Positions 5,294-37,393 of a stretch of DNA of 64,000 nucleotides are shown in pieces (positions within the stretch are counted from its first letter, which is position 1; every line of letters starts with the position of its first letter). A program made the position numbers and the translations under genes. The notes under the pieces were generated by a model. It worked only from the letters and a program-made list of their open reading frames with translations. It had not been told where the DNA came from and did no database searches. The DNA lies in the IMG/VR virus record IMGVR_UViG_2541047715_000004. One strand, written 5' to 3'. This DNA is from a virus. Its lineage: Duplodnaviria > Heunggongvirae > Uroviricota > Caudoviricetes.

Positions 5294-5851
5294 ATGACAA
5301 CGATTGTTGCAGGCATCGATATCGAGTCTACGGGACTGGATTTCCTTGCTGGTCATAAAATTATTGAAATCGCAATTACCCGCTATGAACTGGAGACACA
5401 GAGACATATTGATAGTCTGGAGATGCGTTTTAACCCTCGCAGAAACATAGATCCGAAAGCTCAAGCCGTTCATGGCATTTCATTAGAACAGCTCGCAGCT
5501 GAACCTTTGTTGTCAAATCATGCCAGCGAAATTGGCGCTTATATGGGGGCATGTAGTGCGTGGATTGCTCATAACGGCGAAGCGTTTGATATACCATTTA
5601 TTCGACACGAGTTTTCAGGGTATGGAGTAAGACTGCCAGACGTTCCCGTTATAGATACTATGTTATCGGGATTGTGGGCCACAGAAGACGGTAAACGTCC
5701 TCGCCTTGAAGAGTTGGCCTTCTCTCTTGGCTTTATATACGATCATGCCAAAGCACATAGTGCCTTATATGACACAAACTTAATGATGCAATGCTTCTTT
5801 AAGGCACGTAATAAGTACGGATTTTTTAAATTACCCTCTGAAATTGTGTAA
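5294..5851 (+). CDS. DnaQ-like (DEDDh) 3'-5' exonuclease
   Basis: Exo I motif GIDIESTG, Exo III motif HSALYD; 185 aa. Confidence 0.7.
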   Translation: MTTIVAGIDIESTGLDFLAGHKIIEIAITRYELETQRHIDSLEMRFNPRRNIDPKAQAVHGISLEQLAAEPLLSNHASEIGAYMGACSAWIAHNGEAFDIPFIRHEFSGYGVRLPDVPVIDTMLSGLWATEDGKRPRLEELAFSLGFIYDHAKAHSALYDTNLMMQCFFKARNKYGFFKLPSEIV

Positions 5852-6011
5852 AACAAAAGCCTACTTTAAAGAGAGTTTAAAGTAGGCTTTCTTTTAAAGA
5901 ACAGCCGCCTTTCAATCATTTCCTGCCTGTATTTAATACTTTTCCGCCTGATAGGTTTAGTCAAAATGTAGCTATCGAAACGCAAATGTAACCAAGCAGA
6001 AGGAGACTTAC

Positions 6012-6821
6012 ATGAGTTCGGTTGAAAATGTAATGACAAATGATGATCTGGACGAGCTGACAGCCATGTTGCAATCACTTGATGAACCAGTAAAAAAAGC
6101 CGCACAGGTTGAAAATACTGATGATATTGACGATCTGCTGCTCGGCCTCGATGCTGGCGTAGCCATGAGTTCTGATGATGTTGCCGAAGAACTGTTCAAT
6201 GAAGAAAAAGCAGGTGATTTCAGCTCTGCTTTAAATGAGTTGGAGTTAGCGCATGAGCCTATAAACGTAATTAACGCTGAAAGTGTTGAATCTGCCGAAA
6301 ACGAGCCAGAACAATTGGGATTGATTGAGGTTGAAGAGTGTGTTGATGTTAATGATGAATTAAAAGTTCAACAGTCAAATGATAGCAACACAAATAAAAA
6401 AGCGCGTACTGCAAGAGGTCCTCGTTTTACTTTAAGTGATAAAGATGATTCGTTTTTCAATAAAGCAGGCTTAGAAACAGATATTTTCTTAGACGCTTAC
6501 GAAAACGCGCCTGTCAAAGCAAAGGATAAGATATTAAACCTTCTTAATTGGTTTAGCGGAGGTCCAGATATTAGTGTTTACACGGTAATTTCCATGAGAC
6601 ACCTTCTCACAGAAAAGAAGGCTACAAGTAATAGTATTAAGATTGCTTTAATGAGCAATCCAGAAAAACCGTATCCGCTTAACACTGCGTCAACTCAGGC
6701 TGGGCAAATGATGGCTGTATTTCCAGCGACAGGAATTGCCGTTAGAGACGGTGGAAATCTAACATTGAACGAAGAATCACCGATCGTTAAGAAGTTTGTA
6801 GCGGAGTACACTATTGGATGA
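6012..6821 (+). CDS. hypothetical protein with strongly acidic N-terminal half
   Basis: 269-aa ORF; first ~110 aa are D/E-rich. Confidence 0.5.
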   Translation: MSSVENVMTNDDLDELTAMLQSLDEPVKKAAQVENTDDIDDLLLGLDAGVAMSSDDVAEELFNEEKAGDFSSALNELELAHEPINVINAESVESAENEPEQLGLIEVEECVDVNDELKVQQSNDSNTNKKARTARGPRFTLSDKDDSFFNKAGLETDIFLDAYENAPVKAKDKILNLLNWFSGGPDISVYTVISMRHLLTEKKATSNSIKIALMSNPEKPYPLNTASTQAGQMMAVFPATGIAVRDGGNLTLNEESPIVKKFVAEYTIG

Positions 6822-7004
6822 CGTCCCCCTACTGAAAATAAAGCCCATAGAGAGCTTTATAGTGCTGGGTAAGCCAATCACATATCCAGCACCACAAAAA
6901 CGCGCCAGAGAGCTTCTCGTTTGCATTTCTGGCGCGTTTTATTTGATTGCCAGACATAAAATCAAATGCAAAAATAGGTAATCACTTACCTATCGAGAAA
7001 GACG

Positions 7005-7598
7005 ATGATTGCAGCCGAAAAAATCAAACAGCGAAAGCGCGACAACTCTCTTCGTGACCTCTGGAGAACACCTGACTGGCTGTTTTCTGCCATTCAACGT
7101 TATCTTGGAGTGACATTTGATGTTGACGTTGCCTGCAACAAGGACAATGCGAAGCTGCCTAATTTCATAGGCGTTGAGCGTGATGCTTTGAAATCTGAAT
7201 GGGGACAGCCAGGTACAATTGCCTTCCTCAATCCACCCTACTCCAAAATCTCCCCCTGGATTGATGCGGCTATACGTGAGCAGGCTCGCGGAGTTACAAC
7301 AGTGATGCTAATTCCTCAATCCCTCGATACAAAGTGGTATGAGCGTGCAACAGAGTGTGCGAATGAGACGATTATTCTGTCTGGTGGCCGCGTAGCGTTT
7401 GTCGAGCCTGACGTCAATTTGGGTCAGGTAGAAGTAAACATCAACCCCGGTGGCAGTATGCTCGTTGTTTTTCGAGGATTCTGTCAGGACGCTGGGCACT
7501 CTATAAGCAAGATCCCTTTGGACGTCATGAAAAGTCTGGGAGGGTATGATCCTGCGAATGTGATCAGGAAAAAAAGACAATCAAAGAAGGCTGCTTAG
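7005..7598 (+). CDS. dam: phage-type DNA N6-adenine methyltransferase
   Basis: FLNPPYS motif IV; ~200-aa size typical of small phage Dam enzymes. Confidence 0.7.
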   Translation: MIAAEKIKQRKRDNSLRDLWRTPDWLFSAIQRYLGVTFDVDVACNKDNAKLPNFIGVERDALKSEWGQPGTIAFLNPPYSKISPWIDAAIREQARGVTTVMLIPQSLDTKWYERATECANETIILSGGRVAFVEPDVNLGQVEVNINPGGSMLVVFRGFCQDAGHSISKIPLDVMKSLGGYDPANVIRKKRQSKKAA

Positions 7599-7619
7599 TT
7601 TGTTCTGGCGTCTGTAATT

Positions 7620-7685
7620 AGCCTGCTTCTGTATATATAAATAACTACATATTAATTATTAATATACGGAAGCAGGCTGTTTTAT
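7620..7685 (+). terminator. long hairpin (17-bp arms) followed by T-rich tract
   Basis: AGCCTGCTTCTGTATAT ... ATATACGGAAGCAGGCT then GTTTTAT; a second copy with the same arms is at 37341-37393. Confidence 0.5.
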
Positions 7686-8015: not shown

Positions 8016-8601
8016 TAGATAAGTACAAACTATTCATAAAGTGAATTGTAAGTGCTAAGATCTGATAGTTTCCAGTCGTAGACTGGAGGCTCGACCTGAT
8101 GGGTGGGGGTAAGCGTCACTGGCGTCAGGTTTAAAAAAGCTCACTACCAGCGTAGAACCGGCACCGTTTAGGGGTTGGGGAAGGGGGAACCAAAGTGAGC
8201 AGAGACAAGGGTCACTTTATGATTGTCGAGTCTGGGGTGTTTCGAGAGGTTGAATCCAGTACTCCCCTTCATAAAGTGTGGGAAGATCTCGGTTCTGGGG
8301 TGCTGTCATCCATAACTTCCCAAGCCTAAGCTGGCAGTAGACTTAGGTCATAACTTTTCAGGTTATGAAACGACCAGGTTGGTGAGGAAATTTTGTACTC
8401 ACCTCCCTGGGAGAGTATTACCTGAAAAGACAACCTCTCACTTCGTTCGAGGTGAACTTCACTCACTTCGTTCGTTCAGTTCAGGTTTATAAAAACCTGT
8501 TCTGGGAAGTAATTTGTTTATTTTAATAATTATTAACACGCACGCGTGTGCGCACGCGCGAGGAAAAAAAAATCGGCGCGGCGCTTGATTCAGGAGTTTA
8601 T

Positions 8602-12475: not shown

Positions 12476-12952
12476 ATGAATACAGCTCTTTCCATCATCG
12501 ACGATACCAACTCAAACACTGCTATCGATTATCGTCAGGAAATGAACGTCATCCACGAAATCGTAGCCGAGTGCGAGAAAGAGATCGCCTTCATGTATCA
12601 GGTTCACGACTTCGTTTATGGCGACGAACGCCACAACATGATTAATCGCCTGCTGCAACTGAACCATCGACCAGATGAAGAACGCTCACGTTTGAATCGA
12701 GCTTGGCTGGATAAAGTCGATCTGGAATGGGTGAAACAGAATATTTGGGCCGAGTACTGGAGGAAGGTCACGGATATGACTAACGTTTTGCTGATCATGC
12801 CAGCTTCCCGTCGCGACGAGTGGCGTGAGCAGTTTATAGAGGGCAAACAGGAAGTCATCAAAACTGACAGAACCGGCTACCAGATGAAGGTTAAAGAGTT
12901 CGTTGGTGTACCTGAGTTCAAAGTGGATACAAACATCCCTACGATGGTTTGA
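12476..12952 (+). CDS. hypothetical protein
   Basis: 158-aa ORF convergent with hsdR. Confidence 0.45.
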   Translation: MNTALSIIDDTNSNTAIDYRQEMNVIHEIVAECEKEIAFMYQVHDFVYGDERHNMINRLLQLNHRPDEERSRLNRAWLDKVDLEWVKQNIWAEYWRKVTDMTNVLLIMPASRRDEWREQFIEGKQEVIKTDRTGYQMKVKEFVGVPEFKVDTNIPTMV

Positions 12953-13010
12953 TCTGACAGCTATCTGCAATTTGCACAGATGTCTGCCAGATCTGGTTCA
13001 GATTAATACA

Positions 13011-16000
13011 CTATATCTGCCCACCTACTCCTTTGAACTTTTCAATAAACGTGACGATTTTCTGGAAAACGGTCTGTTTTTTCGTTTTATATTGCGGGTT
13101 TAACGGACTAAGTTTTGGTAATGTCTCGTTTAATTCTGTGCCATTTTCGGTGGCGTATTCGCGTTTTAAAGACGTGCGAATATAGCGTTTCGCCGCCTCT
13201 TCATTGAGATTTTCTTCTTTTATCAATGCTTCTGCTTCACGTTGCTGTTCGCGTTGAGCAAACGTAAAGAATGCCTCAATGATACTGGCTTTGTCTGGTA
13301 AATCATCCAGGTTCGTTTGCTGAATAAAATCGACCACCAGGCCCTCTTTCGCCCGGTTCCCCAGGCTTGAACGAATTAAGCGTTTGACCTCTTCGATCAT
13401 TTCGCCCTTGCCTTTATTTTGTCTGTTGTGTTCGAAAATCAGTCCAAGGATATAATCCAGGTTTATTTCCTGAGACTTCAGCAAATCGACCTCAAAAACT
13501 ACGTCATCCCAGTCAGTGGTTGATTTCTCTTTTTTCTCAGCTTCTTTCTCACGGCGCTGCCAGTCGCGAATATCGTTATAGGCAGAACGATAATCCTGAA
13601 TCTTGCGTTCAGCAGGGAGACGAATTGTTTGCAATTCAGCGAACTTTTCATCATCCACATAATGTTCTGCTTTGAATTTTTCTACCGCAACAGGATCGCT
13701 AAGATCGATTTGTTGCAGGGCTTTCAGCGTGGCAAATTCATCATAGTTTTGCAGGATGTTCTCGGCACGCAGGTATTCACCAAACAGTTTTACGAAGTCT
13801 TTCTTCTCTTTTTCACTTTCAATACTGGCAGGGTCAGGGAACCGTTGTTCCAGTTCTGAAACTACTGCCATAAAGCCGCGTTTAGCTTCACCAGTGGCAG
13901 CATCTGTAAAGCCTTCCATATACTCAGCATAACTCTTTTCTAACACCACATTTTTAGTATTTTTATCACCAAACAGCGTTATGGCATCAATGGTTGAGCG
14001 TTCCAGATCCCGAAAAGTGACGATGTTACCGAAGGTTTTAGTAGCGTCATAAATGCGGTTGGTACGGGAGAATGCCTGCATCAGGCCGTGAAAACGCAAG
14101 TTTTTATCGACGAATAGCGTGTTCAATGTTGGAGCGTCGAAGCCGGTTAAAAACATCCCAACGACAATTAACAGATCGATATCCTGATTTTTAACCCGTT
14201 GGGCTAAATCACGATAGTAGTTCTGAAAACCGTTACTGTCGGTGCTGAAGTTAGTTTTAAAATAGCTGTTATACTCACGAATTGCAGCGTCAAGAAACTC
14301 TTTAGCACTGCTGTCCATTGCGCTGGTATCAAAAGTTTCATCGGAAATTTCACCAATGGCATTTTGTTCTTCATTGGCGGCAAAGGAGAAGATTGTTGCA
14401 ACACGCAGCGGTTTATAGGTAGCCGATTTATTAGCTGCTTCCTCTTGTAACCGTTTAAACGTCGCGTAATAGGCTTTCGCGGCATCCACGCTACTCACTG
14501 CCAGCATGGCATTAAAGCCTTTGGAACCTGGGAAAGTACGGTGGGTCTTCTGGCGGAAGTTATTCAGAATATATTGCGTAATTTCCTGTATACGCATGGG
14601 ATGAAGAAATGCCTGCTGATTTTCAGCCGCACTCAGTTTTTTCTCGTCGGTTTCTGTCTCTAAAGATTTAAACTGTGGCCGCACATCGTTGTAGTCCACC
14701 TTGAATTTGAGCACTTTTTCATCACGAATCGCATCGGTAATTACATACGAATGCAATTCACGACCAAATACGCTGGCGGTCGTTTCTGAGCCTAAGGCGT
14801 TTTCCGGGAAAATAGGTGTGCCGGTAAAACCAAACTGATAATAGCGTTTGAATTTCTTCTTCAGGTTTTTCTGCGCTTCTCCAAACTGGCTGCGGTGACA
14901 TTCATCAAATATAAACACCACTTGCTGATTGTATACAGGCAGGTCGCTTTCTGCTTTCATCAGGTTATTAAGTTTCTGAATAGTGGTGACGATAATTTTG
15001 TTATCGTCCTTATCCAGATTGCGTTTAAGACCTGCGGTATTTTCCGAGCCGTTGACGCTGTCTGGCGAAAAACGCTTATATTCATTCATGGTCTGGTAAT
15101 CGAGGTCTTTCCTGTCGACCACGAAGAAGACTTTATCAATAAAGTCCAGCTCTGTTGCCAGACGCGCGGCTTTAAAGCTGGTGAGGGTTTTACCTGAACC
15201 GGTAGTGTGCCAGATATACCCACCGCTTTCCGGTTTTGACCAGTTCTTCGCTGTAAAGGAACTCTTAATTTTCCACAGAATGCGCTCAGTGGCGGCAATC
15301 TGGTACGGTCGCATCACCAGTAGCGTTTGGCTAACATCGAATACGCTGTAGTTCACTAAGACATTAAGCAGGGTATGTTTCTGGAAAAAGGTGGCGGTAA
15401 AGTCTTTGAGGTCTTTAATCAGCGTGTTGTCTGATTTCGCCCAATTCATGGTGAAGTCAAAACTGTTTTTATCGCGCTTTGTCGTGTTGGCAAAGTAACG
15501 GGTATCGGTGCCGTTGGAAATGACAAACAGTTGCAGATACTTAAACAGAGAATTTTCGCTGTTAAAACTCTCTTTGCTGTAACGATGTATCTGGTTAAAG
15601 GCCTCACGAATCGCCACGCCGCGCTTTTTCAGTTCGATTTGTACCAGCGGTAAGCCATTAACCAGGATCGTGACGTCATAACGGTTAGCATGAGAACCCG
15701 TCTGTTCAAACTGCTGGATAATCTGCACCTTGTTGCGCATGAGATTCTTTTTATCTATCAAATAGATGTTCTCAAGACGCTCGTCATCAAAAATAAAGTC
15801 GCAAATATAGTCGATATGGATTTTACGGGTCTTATCCAGGATGCCATCGCTCGGGTTATCCAGATACTGCTCCGTGAAACGCCGCCATTCGCTGTCATTA
15901 AACACCACACCATTGAGGTTCTGAAGCTGTTCCCGAACGTTGGCCAGCATCGCCGACTGAGATTTTACGGAAATAAATTCATAGCCCTGATTCCGCAGAT

Positions 16001-16127
16001 CCTGAATCAGTTCACGTTCCAGGTCCGATTCGCTCTGGTAGCTGTCGCCTGTTTGCTCGGCTTTGATGTACTTATCAAGAACGATAAAGTTATTGGATTC
16101 AGCAATGGTGTGTGTCTGATGAGTCAT
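13011..16127 (-). CDS. hsdR: type I restriction enzyme R subunit, type IC (EcoR124-like)
   Basis: 1038 aa; Walker [13 protein letters not shown]-box FDECHRS, helicase motifs; N-terminus [20 protein letters not shown] matches my recollection of EcoR124 HsdR. Confidence 0.95.
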
Positions 16128-16248
16128 AGCGCATCCTTTGTGCCGTCTGGCAAGGGCCGGAAGGGCTTTAAGGGCGACTTCCGGCGTGTAAAAAATAGTC
16201 TCTATATAGACCGGATGTTAAGGTGATCCGGTCGGTAGCAATGGTCAA

Positions 16249-17496
16249 TTAGTTACTGATAGTTTCAGGTTTGGGAAAACTGAACAGTAAATCACGATAG
16301 TACTCGTATTGTTTCTGGCGCAACTCGATTTCACGCGGAAGACCTTCGGTGATGGAATTGGTCAAAGCATCAAATTTATCCAGTAATTTCACTATTTTTT
16401 GTTGTTCAACTAGCGATCTTTCAGGAGAATCAGGAAATGGTACTGGTATCATAAGTTTTCTTAAGTTATCATTATAAAGTCTTTTAATAGTTCCACCTTC
16501 AGATATTCCCCATTTTGCTATTTTATAGAAATAGAATAAATATTTATTTAAAACTATTTTTTCATTATTTTCAATCCAGACAATATTGCTATCCTGGAAA
16601 TATGATTCCCTACCATCAAATATAACAGTCCTGCCGATGGTCCCACTGGCAGAAATCAATACTTCGCCAACTTTAGGATAACTATATTTTTCTTTAAATT
16701 CATTAAATAGTTTTCTAGATATATAGGAATCGGGTTCCTTACCAAATGTCCCAATTTTATAAAATGGAATCTCTCCCTCAGAAGATGTTTGTGATTTTAG
16801 GATTCGTTTACACATACGAACTTCACCAATTTCCCCCAAAGCTTTCCACTCAACCTCACCCTCTTTAAAACTCAACAACTGGTCGCGATAGTAGTTGTAT
16901 TGTTTTTTACGCATGCTAAGCTCAGCGGTAAGCTCAGCGGTAAGTGCAGTAAATTTATCCAGAATCCTGACGATTTCAGACTGGATAGCCAGCGACTTTT
17001 CCGGGTTGTTGGGGCAAGGGATGGGGATAAGTAATTTACCTATATCTTTAGCATACAAATGATAAACAGTAGAACCTTTAACCATTTGCAATATCTTTTT
17101 TTTGTTATTTATTATGAAATTACTTAGATATCTACCATCAACACCAGAGCATCTAATAATCAAAATATCGCCGCCTAAAATAACGCCACTTTCTTGAATG
17201 CAACTAGCTGTAGCCAAACCTCTTGGTGTAACGTCTGACGTTGGCATTAGAACATCATTTTTTTCAGATAGAATTGACTCATTGATTGCTTGGTTTGTTT
17301 TTGAGCATACTTTGTCAATTATGGGACCATAATGAGTGAAAAGCTCACCGTAATGAATACAATATCTATTGCCATCTGGAGTTATTTTTTCTTTAGGTAA
17401 AGACTTCCCTTTTAAAAAAGTTGCTAATTTATTTAATGCTACCCACTCAACCTCAGCCCCATCCAGCAGTTTTTCCAGATAACTCAGCTCGCTCAT
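16249..17496 (-). CDS. hsdS: type I R-M specificity subunit, type IC with two divergent TRDs
   Basis: Conserved N-terminal, central ([29 protein letters not shown]) and C-terminal ([41 protein letters not shown]) regions; AT-rich variable TRDs. Confidence 0.95.
16918..16941 (-). repeat. 2 x 12-bp tandem repeat in hsdS central region, encoding TAEL-TAEL
   Basis: + strand AAGCTCAGCGGT twice, then a degenerate third copy. Confidence 0.85.
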
Positions 17497-19055
17497 GCCT
17501 GTACCTCGCTACCTTCAATCTCAGCAACAATCGCATCAATATCTTTACGCAACTGGTCGATTTTGCTGACCGTGGTTTTCAGCTCAGCATTCAGCTCAGC
17601 GATATCGATAATTTCGCGAGTATCTTTCGCTTCCACATAGCTGCTCACCGACAGGTTATAGTCATTCGCGACAACAGTCTCAAACGCAACAGATTTCGCC
17701 AGATGAGCAACATCTTCCTTGCTGGCAAATACCTGCATAATCTGTTCGATATGAGCATCGGTCAGAATGTTGTTGTTAGTCTCTTTTTTGAACAGTTCGC
17801 TGGCATCAATAAACTGAACTTTGGTATCCGTTTTATGTTTAGACAGCACCAGAATATTGACGGCAATAGTGGTGCCAAAGAACAGATTCGGTGCCAGTGA
17901 AATCACGGTTTCGACATAGTTATTGTCGACCAGATACTGACGGATTTTCTGCTCCGCGCCGCCACGGTAAAAAATGCCTGGGAAGCAGACAATCGCAGCG
18001 CGACCTTTGGCCGAAAGATAGTTCAGCGCATGTAATACAAACGCAAAGTCAGCTTTGGATTTGGGGGCCAGAACGCCAGCCGGGGCAAAACGTTCATCGT
18101 TAATCAGCGTCGGGTCATCGCTGCCAATCCATTTCACCGAATACGGCGGGTTAGAAACGATGGCATCAAACGGTTTTTCATCTCTGAAGTGCGGCTCAGT
18201 CAGTGTATTACCCAGCTTGATATCAAACTTGTCGTAGTTGATGTTGTGCAAAAACATGTTCATACGCGCCAGGTTATAGGTCGTATGGTTGATTTCCTGA
18301 CCAAAAAAACCTTCTTCGATGATATGGTCATCAAACTGTTTTTTCGCCTGCAACAACAGCGAACCGGAGCCTGCTGCCGGGTCGTAGATTTTGTTAACGT
18401 GGGTCTGCCCGTGCATAGCCAGTTGTGCAATCAGCTTAGAGACGTGCTGCGGTGTAAAGAACTCGCCGCCGGACTTACCGGCATTCGCCGCATAGTTAGA
18501 AATCAGGAACTCATAGGCGTCACCGAACAGGTCAATCTGATGTTCATGGAAGTCACCAAGTTTTAGCCCTTCAACCCCTTTCAGAACCGCAGCCAAGCGG
18601 GCATTTTTATCTTTAACGGTGTTACCCAGGCGGTTACTGGTGGTATCGAAATCAGCAAACAAACCTTTGATGTCAGCTTCTGAAGGATAACCGTAAGCAG
18701 AACTTTCGATAGCAACGAAGATGCTGTTTAAATCTGCATTCAGTCTGTCATTAGTATTTGCTTTCGCAGCTACGTTGCAGAAAAGCTGACTGGGGTAGAT
18801 GAAGTAGCCTTTAGTTTTGATGGCATCGTCTTTAATGTCATCAGTAATTACGCTGTCATCCAGTTTCGCATAACAGATACTGTCATCACCGGCTTCAATA
18901 TAACTGGAAAAATTTTCGCTGATAAAACGGTAAAAAAGCGCGCCCAAAACGTACTGCTTAAAATCCCATCCATCGACTGAACCCCTGACATCGTTAGCAA
19001 TTTGCCAGATCTGGCGATGAAGCTCTGCACGTTGTTGAATACTTGTCATTTTCAT
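17493..19055 (-). CDS. hsdM: type I R-M N6-adenine DNA methyltransferase subunit
   Basis: 520 aa; motif [14 protein letters not shown]; stop overlaps hsdS start (ATGA). Confidence 0.95.
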
Positions 19056-19407
19056 CCACTTATTTCAGGTTTAAGTAATTGGATGTGATTCTACAGCAAC
19101 TTGGATGCTTTAGCAGTTCGGACATTAGGTAACGAATGACCTAATTAGAGCTTTTTGGAAAAGCGGTATTGTCGGTGCGATTTTAGCTATGTCTGGGTGT
19201 GCGATGGTGCAATACAATGACGGTGAAAAGGTTAGCATCCAGTTCGATGGCTGGTATTGGCTTGGATAGCCTGCCAAAAAACGCAGATAAAGCCTGTCAG
19301 CAATACGGAAAGTCTAAAGCTGTATATCTGCATAGCGCGAACGCTAACCCTCATCTTGCGCCTGGTACGGGTGTTCAGAATACCATCTGGAAATGTGAGC
19401 CTTAAAC

Positions 19408-19659
19408 ATGAGCAACTGGAACATAGCAGCCAAAAGCCAGGAAGAAAGGAATAAAGTTAACGTTGACCTGGCTGCCAGGGGGGTTGCCTACAAAGAGCGA
19501 TTGAACATACCCGTCATAGCGGAACAGGTAGCCCGTGAGCAACCTGAGAACCTGCGCACCTATTTCATGGAACGGCTACGGCACTACCGGCAGTTAAGCC
19601 TCCTGCTGCCAAAAGGAAACGATCCGGTATATCAGAAAGAAGATATAGCCAAAAAATAA
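19408..19659 (+). CDS. hypothetical protein
   Basis: 83-aa ORF between hsdM promoter region and UmuD'-like gene. Confidence 0.4.
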
Positions 19660-19719
19660 CGCGCCACCAGACGAGCGCAAAGCATCGCGCTATTGCACAC
19701 TTCAAGCATCTTTAATGTA

Positions 19720-19757: not shown

Positions 19758-20147
19758 ATGGGCTTCCCTTCTCCTGCGGCGGATTATGCTGAGAGCCGTA
19801 TTTCTCTTGATCAGCAGATAATTAGACATCCTTCAGCGACCTACTTCATGAGGGCAGCTGATAGTCATCATCGTGAGGGAATATTACAGGGTGCATTGCT
19901 GGTGGTCGATTCCTCACTTACCCCGGTTGATGGTTCTCTGCTTGTATGCGCTCTGGATGGGGAATATCGCGTAAAAAGATACCGGAAGTACCCACGTCAG
20001 CATCTGGAGGATTTAAGAACCGGTAAGAAGGAAGCATTGCCAAAGGATGACGATGGATGCACGGGCAGCAATGCCGTGTTTGGTGTGATCACTCACATTA
20101 TCAACGACGCAAGAAGTGGCGAGTTTGATGATTGTCCCGTGATGTAG
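19758..20147 (+). CDS. UmuD'-like S24 peptidase-fold protein lacking the cleavable N-terminal arm (HumD-like)
   Basis: Starts MGFPSPAADY, equivalent to UmuD residue Gly25; Ser (ADS) and Lys (RVKRY) dyad positions conserved; GAGGTG RBS. Confidence 0.7.
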   Translation: MGFPSPAADYAESRISLDQQIIRHPSATYFMRAADSHHREGILQGALLVVDSSLTPVDGSLLVCALDGEYRVKRYRKYPRQHLEDLRTGKKEALPKDDDGCTGSNAVFGVITHIINDARSGEFDDCPVM

Positions 20148-20158
20148 GAGAACTGATT

Positions 20159-20184
20159 AGGCGGTGCAATGCACCGCCTTTTAT
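20159..20184. terminator. bidirectional terminator between convergent UmuD'-like gene and apbC
   Basis: AGGCGGTGCAATGCACCGCCT followed by TTTAT. Confidence 0.6.
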
Positions 20185-21284
20185 CACACTGCGCGGAATG
20201 CGATTTCGCCAGGTATTACTTCACCTTGCCAATACATTTGGGCGGCAACGCGATCTGCGAGGTCACGATAAATAGCCGTAAATTCGCTATCTGGACGACT
20301 AATAACGGTTGGTGTTCCGTTATCCAGATCTTCACGAAGAGAGATATGAAGTGGCATTTGGCCTAACAACTGCGTGTTGTATTTCTCGGCCAGTTTCTGT
20401 GCGCCACCGGTGCCAAAAATTGGCTCGTGATGACCGCAGTTACTGCAAATATGCACACTCATGTTTTCGACGATACCCAGTACCGGCACTTCGACTTTTT
20501 CGAACATCACAATGCCTTTCTTCGCATCGATCAGCGCGATGTCTTGCGGCGTAGTTACCACAACCGCACCAGTTACAGGAATGTTCTGCGCCAGCGTCAA
20601 CTGAATATCACCAGTGCCCGGCGGCATATCGAGAACGAGATAGTCCAGATCAGGCCATAGAGTTTCCTGCAACATCTGCATCAGCGCCTTGCTGGCCATC
20701 GGTCCACGCCACACCATTGCATTGTCGTCGGTGACCAGATAACCAATAGAGTTGGTTGCCAGGCCATGAGACATGATAGGTGCCATGTGAGTACCGTCAG
20801 GTGAGGTTGGACGTTGGTTTTCCGCGCCCAGCATGGTTGGAATTGATGGACCATAGATATCGGCATCCAAAATACCAACTTTCGCACCTTCAGCAGCCAA
20901 CGCCAGTGCCAGGTTTACCGCCGTGGAGGATTTACCCACGCCGCCCTTGCCTGAGCTGACGGCGATAATGTTCTTAACGCCATTAATGCCTGGTTGGTTT
21001 TTGACGCGCTTAAGCGTGGCAATGTTGTACGACAGCTTCCAGTCAATAGCCTTTGCGCCAGTGATACGGAGCAGATCACCACTACATTGCTCTTTCAGGT
21101 CTTCAAAAGGCTTATTCCACACGAAAGGCATGATTAGTTCGACATGCAGTGTGTCATCCATCAACGCAACATGGTGTAACGCTTTAAGCGTAGTCAGGTT
21201 GTGTTTCAGGGTTGGGTGCTGAAAATTAGCCAGCGTACCGGCTACCATTGCTCTCAGGGCATCCGGCGATTTGGACTCGCTCAT
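20184..21284 (-). CDS. apbC: Fe-S cluster carrier ATPase ApbC/Mrp
   Basis: 366 aa, GKGGVGKS P-loop; near-identical to E. coli Mrp as I recall it. Confidence 0.95.
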   Translation of the reverse strand: MSESKSPDALRAMVAGTLANFQHPTLKHNLTTLKALHHVALMDDTLHVELIMPFVWNKPFEDLKEQCSGDLLRITGAKAIDWKLSYNIATLKRVKNQPGINGVKNIIAVSSGKGGVGKSSTAVNLALALAAEGAKVGILDADIYGPSIPTMLGAENQRPTSPDGTHMAPIMSHGLATNSIGYLVTDDNAMVWRGPMASKALMQMLQETLWPDLDYLVLDMPPGTGDIQLTLAQNIPVTGAVVVTTPQDIALIDAKKGIVMFEKVEVPVLGIVENMSVHICSNCGHHEPIFGTGGAQKLAEKYNTQLLGQMPLHISLREDLDNGTPTVISRPDSEFTAIYRDLADRVAAQMYWQGEVIPGEIAFRAV

Positions 21285-21441
21285 CCCGTCTCCTTTATTT
21301 TAATTTGCGCAATTGTCGCCTTGTAGTGTACTCCAGCTACGACATTTAATCATTTATGAGAAATGCTGTTATCACATGGCAGACATAAGGCCATTTTGTT
21401 ACTATCAAGCCCCTTTTCACTACAAAGAAGTAATGCCTACT

Positions 21442-23475
21442 ATGACCCAAGTCGCGAAGAAAATTCTGGTGACGTGCGCGCTGCCGTACGCTAACGGCTC
21501 AATCCACCTCGGCCATATGCTGGAGCACATCCAGGCTGATGTCTGGGTTCGTTACCAGCGAATGCGCGGCCACGAGGTTAATTTCATCTGTGCCGACGAT
21601 GCCCACGGTACGCCGATCATGCTGAAAGCACAGCAGCTTGGTATCACACCGGAGCAGATGATTGGCGAAATGAGTCAGGAACACCAGACTGATTTCGCAG
21701 GCTTTAACATCAGCTATGACAACTATCACTCGACGCACAGCGAAGAGAACCGCCAGCTGTCTGAGCTTATCTATACTCGCCTGAAAGAGAACGGTTTTAT
21801 TAAAAACCGCACTATCTCTCAGTTGTACGACCCGGAAAAAGGCATGTTCCTGCCGGATCGTTTTGTGAAAGGCACCTGCCCGAAATGTAAAGCGCCAGAT
21901 CAATACGGCGATAACTGTGAAGTCTGCGGCGCAACATATAGCCCGACTGAATTGATCGAGCCGAAATCGGTGGTTTCTGGCGCTACCCCGGTAATGCGTG
22001 ATTCCGAACACTTCTTCTTTGATCTGCCTTCTTTCAGCGAAATGTTGCAGGCATGGACCCGCAGCGGCGCGTTGCAGGAGCAGGTGGCGAACAAAATGCA
22101 GGAATGGTTTGAATCCGGCCTGCAACAGTGGGATATCTCCCGAGATGCGCCTTACTTCGGTTTTGAAATTCCGAACGCGCCGGGCAAATATTTCTACGTC
22201 TGGCTGGACGCGCCGATTGGCTACATGGGTTCCTTCAAGAATCTGTGCGACAAACGCGGCGACACTACCAGCTTCGACGAATACTGGAAGAAAGACTCCA
22301 CCGCCGAGCTGTACCACTTCATCGGTAAAGATATCGTTTACTTCCACAGCCTGTTCTGGCCTGCCATGCTGGAAGGCAGCAACTTCCGCAAGCCGACCAA
22401 CCTGTTTGTTCACGGCTATGTGACGGTGAACGGCGCGAAGATGTCCAAGTCTCGCGGCACCTTTATTAAAGCCAGCACCTGGCTGAATCATTTTGACGCC
22501 GACAGCCTGCGTTACTACTACACTGCGAAACTCTCTTCGCGCATTGATGATATCGATCTCAACCTGGAAGATTTTGTTCAGCGCGTGAATGCCGATATCG
22601 TGAACAAAGTGGTTAACCTGGCCTCCCGTAATGCAGGTTTTATCAACAAACGTTTTGACGGCGTGCTGGCAAGCGAACTGGCTGACCCGCAACTGTACAA
22701 AACCTTCACTGATGCCGCTGAAGTGATTGGTGAAGCGTGGGAAAGCCGCGAATTTGGCAAAGCTATCCGTGAAATCATGTCACTGGCTGACCTGGCTAAC
22801 CGCTATGTTGATGAACAGGCTCCGTGGGTGGTGGCGAAGCAGGAAGGCCGCGATGCCGACCTGCAGGCGATTTGCTCTATGGGCATTAACCTGTTCCGCG
22901 TGCTGATGACGTACCTGAAACCGGTACTGCCGAAACTGACTGAACGTGCAGAAGCATTCCTGAATACAGAACTGACCTGGGATGGTATCCAGCAACCGCT
23001 GCTGGGCCATAAAGTGAATCCGTTCAAGGCACTGTATAACCGTATCGATATGAAACAGGTGGAAGCACTGGTGGAAGCATCCAAAGAAGAAGTGAAAGCC
23101 ACAGCTGCACAGGTAACTGGCCCACTGGCTGACGACCCGATTCAGGAAACCATCACCTTTGACGACTTCGCCAAAGTTGACCTGCGTGTGGCGCTGATTG
23201 AAAACGCGGAGTTTGTCGAAGGTTCTGACAAACTGCTGCGTCTGACACTGGATCTCGGTGGTGAAAAGCGTAATGTCTTCTCAGGCATCCGTTCTGCTTA
23301 TCCAGACCCACAGGCACTGATTGGTCGTCACACCATTATGGTGGCTAACCTGGCTCCGCGTAAAATGCGCTTCGGTATCTCCGAAGGCATGGTGATGGCT
23401 GCTGGCCCCGGCGGGAAAGATATCTTCCTGTTAAGCCCGGATGCTGGTGCTAAACCAGGCCACCAGGTTAAGTAA
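21442..23475 (+). CDS. metG: methionine--tRNA ligase
   Basis: 677 aa from ATG 21442; HLGH and KMSKS motifs; near-identical to E. coli MetG as I recall it; divergent from apbC as in E. coli. Confidence 0.95.
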
Positions 23476-37340: not shown

Positions 37341-37393
37341 CCTGCTTCTGTATATAAATAATAAGTAACTTATTAAATATATACGGAAGCAGG
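37341..37393 (+). repeat. second copy of long hairpin with same 16-17-bp arms as 7620-7678
   Basis: CCTGCTTCTGTATATA ... TATATACGGAAGCAGG, same arm mismatch as copy 1. Confidence 0.6.

Follow-up and report, generated by a model that had tools for sequence, protein, structure and literature searches.

Polyanionic disordered segments attached to nucleic-acid-binding modules are known to autoinhibit or compete with DNA, and to recruit partners, as in region 1.1 of sigma-70, the delta subunit of RNA polymerase (RNAP) and the tails of SSB, T4 gp32 and T7 gp2.5; the delta subunit of the Firmicutes (RpoE) combines a winged-helix-like domain with a long acidic tail. Ocr (T7 gp0.3) and ArdA, proteins of phages and mobile elements, are compact, fully folded dimers that place their carboxylates like the phosphates of B-DNA and have no DNA-binding domain. 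Gp44 of Bacillus phage SPO1 joins a DNA-binding domain to a repeat-bearing, acidic and disordered DNA mimic that binds RNAP (PMC8208478). Here we analyze a highly acidic protein encoded at positions 6012-6821 of a 64,000-nucleotide stretch of the viral record IMGVR_UViG_2541047715_000004 (the whole stretch is referred to below as the window), together with the adenine methylase gene that follows it at 7005-7598. An earlier note on this DNA had proposed the two genes as a candidate anti-restriction pair. The reading that we prefer, with about even confidence, is that the acidic protein is a tethered polyanion associated with replication or transcription, and not an anti-restriction protein, and that the methylase is independent of it.

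Judged by its sequence, the window is an SSU5/pHCM2-like phage-plasmid. The region around 6012-7598 is 98.6% identical to Escherichia phage Cyrano, the phage-plasmid that E. coli LF82 carries as pLF82 and that is itself SSU5-like; identity to Salmonella phage SSU5, in the aligned part only, is about 79%. The acidic gene corresponds to CYRAN_78 in Cyrano, annotated as a hypothetical protein, and to SSU5_087 in SSU5, and the methylase gene to CYRAN_79, annotated as an adenine methyltransferase, and to SSU5_088.

Architecture and conservation of the acidic protein

Four predicted parts make up the acidic protein, according to both the alignments (22, 43 and 66 relatives) and two AlphaFold runs: an N-terminal amphipathic acidic motif, an acidic linker, a basic patch and a C-terminal winged-helix domain. 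The corresponding features, all on the plus strand, are as follows.

6012-6821, plus strand: coding sequence of the acidic winged-helix protein (269 residues, ATG start; CYRAN_78/SSU5_087, PHROG 5235)
6012-6386, plus strand: acidic N-terminal region, residues 1-125, net charge -31, from charge count and structure prediction
6045-6071, plus strand: amphipathic acidic motif, copy 1, DLDELTAML, residues 12-20, conserved family-wide in the alignments (DNA repeat D1)
6123-6149, plus strand: amphipathic acidic motif, copy 2, DIDDLLLGL, residues 38-46
6396-6425, plus strand: basic patch KKARTARGPR, residues 129-138, rich in lysine and arginine in most relatives
6429-6818, plus strand: C-terminal domain, residues 140-269, three helices followed by a winged helix (a1-b1-a2-a3-b2-b3)

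The start codon is preceded by AAGGAGA at 6000-6006. The acid-rich N-terminal region of about 110 residues that had first drawn attention to this gene is borne out by the counts: residues 1-110 hold 31 aspartates or glutamates and 3 lysines or arginines, and residues 1-125 hold 35 and 4, at an acid density of 28% and with two aromatic residues. Among the window's open reading frames (ORFs) of at least 100 codons, it is the most acidic 110-residue stretch, at a net charge of -30 compared to -23 for the next. Residues 126-269 are near neutral, with an isoelectric point of 9.1. Within the acidic region, AlphaFold predicts loose helices at residues 11-31, 37-51, 57-62 and 70-80 and disorder from about residue 85 to 130, over the roughly 45 residues preceding the domain, and the alignments show that the acidic linker varies among relatives. 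A third, degenerate copy of the amphipathic motif (DDVAEELF) lies at residues 54-61, and the repetition of the motif is also seen as a repeat in the DNA.

The 130 residues of the C-terminal domain are predicted with a predicted local distance difference test (pLDDT) score of 96-99, and the predicted model has the a1-b1-a2-a3-b2-b3 topology and β-hairpin wing that place it in the winged-helix superfamily. K169, K173, N176, T225, Q229 and Q232 are invariant in the alignments; the polar helix bearing T225, Q229 and Q232, a conserved basic residue in the wing and the preceding basic patch are at most suggestive of DNA binding. A β-clamp-binding motif in the N-terminus was considered and rejected, the conserved spacing being that of a helical LxxLLxxL and not of QL[SD]LF, and kleisin-like or helicase-loader roles were dropped because nothing beyond generic winged-helix similarity lay behind either.

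An exhaustive HMMER scan with the C-terminal domain yielded 250 representatives at 50% identity, nearly all of 220-300 residues and with the domain at the C-terminus. Among 182 of the retrieved relatives, the sequence preceding the domain is acidic, its net charge having a median of -20 and lying at -10 or below in 85%, while a strict form of the N-terminal motif is found in 78 of 179 members, at a median position of 12, versus 4.5 expected from shuffled N-terminal regions. The window protein matches phrog_5235 over its full length (E 9.9e-150) and phrog_3932 over the C-terminal domain (E 3.8e-15), and all 66 diverse relatives match these two PHROGs, both of unknown function. Family-wide acidity, motif and PHROG membership therefore indicate that the fusion of an acidic arm to a predicted winged helix is an old, conserved architecture and not a peculiarity of the window element.

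Homology to a protein of known, unrelated function, which the earlier note had named as evidence against its own proposal, was looked for, and no characterised homologue was found. The acidic protein has no match in Pfam (E <=0.01), NCBIfam or PADLOC, and none of the 66 diverse relatives contains a Pfam domain. Searches of PDB sequences with the single sequence and with a family profile gave chance matches only, Foldseek comparison with PDB and BFVD turned up nothing both significant and specific, and a word-indexed profile search with distant relatives returned only six unnamed proteins and was dominated by low-complexity words. The sources consulted contain no named member of the family, and the literature search returned nothing on it.

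Genomic position and transcription units

The relationship between the acidic gene and its neighbours was examined in loci from IMG/VR, 79 close and 39 more distant, which were retrieved with two narrow alignments and searched with the neighbouring proteins of the window. Upstream of the acidic gene, the window encodes the β subunit of ribonucleotide reductase, a MazG-like pyrophosphohydrolase, thymidylate synthase, polynucleotide kinase, dihydrofolate reductase, a P-loop kinase, a 139-residue hypothetical protein and a DnaQ-like 3'-5' exonuclease; an 84-residue hypothetical protein and RNase H are encoded downstream of the methylase gene. The DnaQ-like exonuclease gene precedes the family gene in 38 of the 39 distant-set loci, the exception having no upstream flank. 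In Pseudomonas phage nickie, the homologue gp063 closes a module that is colinear with that of Cyrano, in the order DnaB, DnaG, ligase, CobT/S, DnaE (the α subunit of Pol III), SSB, exonuclease, RecA, SbcD/C, RuvC, NrdA/B, ThyA, DHFR, kinase, DnaQ and the acidic gene. Clustering of ORFs from the distant loci likewise reveals conserved genes upstream of the acidic gene and none downstream. The gene thus has the profile of a replication-module core gene rather than of variable cargo directed against host defences. The ArdA-like genes that have been reported from the SSU5 supergroup sit in the variable shell genome. A family of 250 clusters with a clean architecture and a fixed genomic position represents a widespread, uncharacterised core protein of DnaE-type phages and a testable candidate.

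The association with the methylase follows another pattern. A Dam gene lies beside the acidic gene in all 79 close SSU5-like loci and in eight of the 39 distant-set loci, all eight SSU5-like (β subunit of ribonucleotide reductase 77-79% identical); it is missing from all 29 of the family-bearing loci that are truly distant. Even where both genes are present, insertions of about 1.5 kb part them in three loci (L019, L023 and L031). The signals around the two genes are as follows.

5294-5851: DnaQ-like exonuclease gene, directly upstream of the acidic gene
5856-5890, plus strand: intrinsic-terminator hairpin and U-run after the DnaQ-like exonuclease gene; -19.2 kcal/mol, z -3.7, 0 of 200 shuffles as stable
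5923-5967, plus strand: conserved non-coding block CTGCCTG...CTTTTCCGCCTGATAGGTTTnGTCAAAAT with one ATAGGT half-site, a phylogenetic footprint in SSU5-supergroup loci
6897-6940, plus strand: terminator hairpin followed by TTTTATTT, between the acidic and methylase genes; -27.6 kcal/mol, z -4.9
6947-6975, plus strand: sigma-70-like methylase promoter TTGCCA-17-AAAAAT with upstream TG, found by scan and conserved in SSU5-like loci
7619-7678, plus strand: long terminator-like hairpin after the methylase gene; -35.7 kcal/mol, z -6.7

At the position of the 5856-5890 hairpin, other SSU5-like loci have a hairpin of differing sequence, GAAAGCGCC-TGAT-GGCGCTTTT. The stem of the hairpin between the two genes is kept in relatives by compensatory changes (GCGCCAGA/TCTGGCGC, GCGTCAGA/TCTGACGC, GCACCAGA/TCTGGTGC and CACGCCAGA/TCTGGCGTG). 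A sigma-70 consensus scan of the conserved block at 5923-5967 found no site over threshold, and this block may be a weak or factor-dependent promoter.

A co-functional pair or operon would be expected to show conserved co-occurrence and co-transcription. What we found is that Dam is absent from the truly distant loci and that a conserved terminator and a separate promoter stand between the genes. Because of these co-occurrence, synteny and transcription signals, the pairing put forward in the earlier note does not hold up: the acidic gene and the methylase gene are predicted to be independent genes in separate transcription units, with no functional pairing. In the transcriptome of the LF82 lysogen, 14 Cyrano genes are above local background, and CYRAN_78 and CYRAN_79 are not listed among them (PMC9928086); both therefore seem to be lytic-cycle genes.

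The arms of the hairpin at 7619-7678 (AGCCTGCTTCTGTATAT ... ATATACGGAAGCAGGCT) recur at about 37341-37393, in the structural-gene region, both copies with AT-rich loops, so that the two appear to be copies of a repeated terminator-like element.

Comparison with DNA-mimic proteins and proposed role

According to the anti-restriction model, the acidic region imitates DNA, inhibits restriction enzymes of type I or of other types, or Bacteriophage Exclusion (BREX), and protects incoming DNA jointly with the methylase. The charge of the region fits such a role, since its -31 over 125 residues matches Ocr (about -28 over 117 residues) in net charge and charge density and is comparable in both to ArdA; the gene is phage-encoded, apparently silent in the lysogen, and adjoins a hotspot of methylases and restriction-modification (R-M) systems (see below). 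DNA mimics are, moreover, mutually non-homologous, and a disordered acidic mimic has a precedent in SPO1 Gp44 (PMC8208478). Against this, the Pfam family models of Ocr and ArdA do not match the acidic protein, and neither PDB sequences nor predicted folds give any Ocr or ArdA signal. Structure prediction, which the earlier note had suggested as a check, agrees with that note on the charge and departs from it on the fold: no compact, folded helical scaffold with a B-DNA-like array of carboxylates is predicted, and the region is instead low in complexity, loosely helical or largely disordered, poor in aromatic residues and, outside a short motif, poorly conserved. The conserved winged-helix domain to which it is fused is left unexplained by the model, and the gene is a core one, syntenic with DnaQ across distant phages and independent of Dam. 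The scan of the sequence ahead of the acidic gene found no strong early sigma-70 promoter, a terminator stands between this gene and Dam, and a general type I inhibitor would disable the type I system that the element itself carries. We therefore regard an Ocr/ArdA-type decoy as improbable, and retain from the anti-restriction proposal the methylase as an orphan self-protection enzyme of the phage. Were the Ocr-like reading true, it would add an anti-restriction protein to clinically common phage-plasmids (SSU5/pHCM2/pLF82); as it stands, the case cautions that acidity and a neighbouring methylase are insufficient to call anti-restriction.

The same acidic arm could belong to a host-takeover factor of the SPO1 Gp44 or RNAP delta type, in which the winged helix would dock on DNA or RNAP and the arm would fill nucleic-acid sites of the host RNAP or of nucleoid proteins, redirecting or shutting off host transcription. 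Gp44 is built on a similar logic, a small DNA-binding domain being joined to a disordered region that is flexible, repeat-containing and highly acidic and that binds the β and β' subunits (PMC8208478). The amphipathic motif of the window protein resembles activation-domain-like helices, and its gene is apparently a lytic-cycle one. However, no homology to Gp44, delta (HARE-HTH) or sigma was found, and the window protein and Gp44 differ in domain order, which is reversed, in the fold of the DNA-binding domain (55 residues, N-terminal, in Gp44 versus a winged helix of about 130 here) and in acid density (57% in Gp44 versus 28% here). Gp44 is, furthermore, a host-takeover gene of a Gram-positive phage, whereas the acidic gene is embedded in a replication module and not in an early host-takeover cluster. 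On balance we consider this role unlikely, if somewhat less so than that of a restriction decoy.

A looser likeness extends to sigma-70 region 1.1, RNAP delta and SSB, gp32 and gp2.5, in all of which a polyanionic disordered segment is joined to a nucleic-acid-binding module. The arm described here differs in being N-terminal and in carrying an LxxLLxxL-type motif, and the protein has no homology to these proteins and no Pfam HARE-HTH or sigma match.

In the reading of a replication- or transcription-associated tethered polyanion, the acidic protein would be an early or middle core protein of DnaE/DnaQ-type phages, encoded at the 3' edge of their module for replication, recombination and nucleotide metabolism. 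The winged helix and basic patch would anchor it to DNA or to a lineage-conserved target; that the putative recognition helix hardly changes among phages of widely differing hosts speaks for such a target rather than for variable operators. The polyanionic, mostly disordered arm, with its LxxLLxxL-type acidic helix in one to three copies, could then either compete with nucleic acid in cis or in trans, as an autoinhibitory or DNA-mimic tail, or recruit a partner protein through the amphipathic motif; a polyanionic, DNA-competing role for the arm is plausible. The protein would thereby act in phage DNA replication or its transcriptional control, and not in blocking type I restriction. The analysis shows the architecture, the predicted fold, the family-wide acidity and motif, the synteny and the separate transcription units; we infer that the protein binds DNA or a partner, what its acidic arm does and when it acts.

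A bolder extension, to which we attach a small probability, is that the family constitutes a new lineage-defining accessory factor of phage Pol III-type (DnaE and DnaQ) replisomes or of their transcription. It would be either a nucleic-acid-mimicking subunit akin to delta or to sigma region 1.1, serving a Gram-negative RNAP or the phage's own replicase, or a trans-acting partner of the palindromic start-site operators described below.

The orphan methylase and the downstream hotspot

The methylase gene encodes an N6-adenine DNA methyltransferase of the Dam family.

7005-7598, plus strand: coding sequence of the orphan N6-adenine DNA methyltransferase (197 residues, PF05869/TIGR01712), with NPPY at residues 76-79

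Its assignment is supported by matches above the curated cutoffs to Pfam Dam (PF05869; E 2.4e-38, 131.9 bits, cutoff 28.1) and to the NCBIfam model TIGR01712, phage N-6-adenine-methyltransferase (114 bits, cutoff 97.05), and by the catalytic (D/N)PP(Y/F) motif, present as NPPY. Its description as solitary is upheld, as no restriction-enzyme ORF adjoins it, its neighbours being the acidic gene, the 84-residue hypothetical gene and RNase H, and the best PADLOC matches are orphan methyltransferase models. Homologues occur in 1,299 phage records, and identity is about 39% to the enzymes of Stx-converting phages and 25% to T1 Dam. The tetramer GATC occurs in the window at 0.80 of expectation, which is unremarkable among palindromes and shows no specific avoidance. 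It belongs with the orphan Dam enzymes of T1 and Stx phages, from which nothing notable sets it apart, and is an ordinary member of a very common family of solitary phage methylases, which serve as a standard means of self-protection.

The adjacency of the two genes is probably explained by what lies downstream, where a variable hotspot bordering the acidic gene repeatedly gathers methylases and type I R-M cassettes. In SSU5-like elements, the acidic gene is followed by Dam at +184 bp and, at about +5.6 kb, by a DUF4942-type methylase. The window element also carries a type I system, as had been noted before.

13011-16127, minus strand: hsdR
16249-17496, minus strand: hsdS-like
17493-19055, minus strand: hsdM

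These genes belong to a 6.8-kb type I R-M cassette (12924-19717) that stands in place of 5.9 kb of Cyrano sequence, comprising the 3' two-thirds of the DUF4942 methyltransferase gene and Ea22/Eaa/Eae-like genes; a 158-residue stump of the DUF4942 gene remains at 12476-12952. Cassettes about 95% identical to it occur in the P1-like phages vB_EcoM-673R5 and phi456, a likeness suggesting that unrelated phage-plasmids have exchanged it. In distant loci, too, DUF4942 homologues or type I HsdM are encoded 0.8-3 kb downstream of the family gene.

Locus L018, 13101-14660: DUF4942 homologue
Locus L025, 12845-14506: DUF4942 homologue
Loci L009, L012, L013 and L014, about 0.8 kb downstream of the family gene: type I HsdM

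The edge of the replication module thus looks like a recurrent hotspot for modification and R-M cargo in distant phages as well.

An operator-like palindrome network

The methylase promoter is overlapped by a perfect palindrome that recurs throughout the window.

6974-6993, plus strand: perfect 20-bp operator-like palindrome ATAGGTAA-TCAC-TTACCTAT that overlaps the methylase promoter at its -10 element and predicted start site
2133, 9192, 34106, 37361, 39395, 40902, 42818, 46393, 52904 and 59824: further copies in the window
17393 and 19125: weak copies in the window
7605, 17661, 28201 and 32885 of locus L122: copies in that locus

The palindrome lies 5' of the Dam start codon, at or just after the -10 element, and is conserved in SSU5-like loci. 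At up to 3 mismatches, the window contains 9 matches versus 0.12 expected; when purine/pyrimidine degeneracy is allowed, about 11 intergenic copies are found, 11-170 nt upstream of plus-strand genes and in early and structural regions alike. Their consensus is approximately ATAAGTAAGTACTTACTTAT, with the core AGT[A/C]AG-N2-CT[T/G]ACT. The Cyrano replication region has 7 sites versus 0.86 expected, and the 29 truly distant loci together hold 85 copies of the core versus 3.1 expected, with many sites in L007, L009-L014, L018, L021, L025, L027, L033-L037 and L039-L042. Of 53 sites in 13 non-redundant loci, 48 are intergenic; typically, a TATAAT-like hexamer precedes the site by 1-6 nt and a start codon follows it at 13-60 nt. 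Centred in this way on the transcription start, the palindrome suggests the position of a repressor operator. An RNA hairpin was excluded, given that transcripts from a start this close to the -10 element would miss the left arm. One palindrome-like site is held in the loop of the hairpin copy at about 37341-37393.

Conservation of the palindrome across distant phages that bear the acidic family raised the possibility that the acidic protein is itself a sequence-specific regulator that binds it over many phage start sites, the Dam promoter included. The winged helix has a nearly invariant polar helix, GTAxxQxxQ, which reads Q[A/S][G/S]Q in palindrome-bearing groups and QTTQ or QATQ in the nickie-like phages that lack the palindrome. 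Nevertheless, the half-site variants AAG and CAG do not covary with the helix, identical helices occurring in L009 and L036 and in L027 and L021, and the nickie-like phages retain the protein with no recurrent dyad found in 50 kb. With both the covariation and the search for an alternative nickie-like dyad negative, the acidic protein was dropped as the palindrome binder, a role that we now judge very improbable.

One palindrome copy lies 30 bp upstream of CYRAN_45, a putative master repressor gene with a weak HTH_19 match. This copy and the start-site position make a repressor the likelier binder, and we favour a dispersed operator network of the lysogeny repressor over binding by the acidic protein, with the CYRAN_45 repressor as the suspected candidate; the search for CYRAN_45 in distant phages reached only relatives of at least 66% identity. 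The methylase, with a promoter of its own gated by the operator-like palindrome over its start site, would then be made in lytic growth and presumably methylate progeny DNA.

The closest parallel is phage P1, where one operator, that of C1, is present in many copies over a plasmid-prophage genome and overlaps lytic promoters, including that of a methylase gene. The P1 C1 operators are asymmetric 17-mers, whereas the palindrome described here is a perfect dyad of 14-20 bp. In the literature searched, we found no description of SSU5-group regulation or of the palindrome network, which gives an entry point to the question of how these phage-plasmids silence dozens of lytic promoters.

Other features of the window

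Rfam and tRNA scans of the window gave no matches. A second exact dyad, AAACAA-N1-TTGTTT, occurs six times (10090, 10819, 23560, 23611, 26903 and 37457), whereas no dyad exceeds 2 occurrences in shuffled sequence. On the minus strand, the ORF at 30928-31449 matches Pfam PF03614, repressor of phase-1 flagellin (FljA-like; E 1.4e-68), and is possibly a lysogenic-conversion gene that affects host flagellar expression. Three further genes constitute host-like cargo.

19758-20147, plus strand: HumD/UmuD-like autoproteolytic subunit
20184-21284, minus strand: ApbC/Mrp-type Fe-S carrier ATPase, labelled MinD in Cyrano
21313-23475, plus strand: full-length methionyl-tRNA synthetase

Between the 84-residue gene and RNase H, 530 bp (8016-8547) contain no sizeable ORF and have no Rfam match. 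The segment includes short sequences in direct repeat, CTCACTTCGTTCG (8437 and 8462) and one like TCGAGTCTGGGGTG (8226 and 8289). It coincides in position with CYRAN_81 of Cyrano, a small gene whose expression in the lysogen is 12-fold above background according to the LF82 study (PMC9928086).

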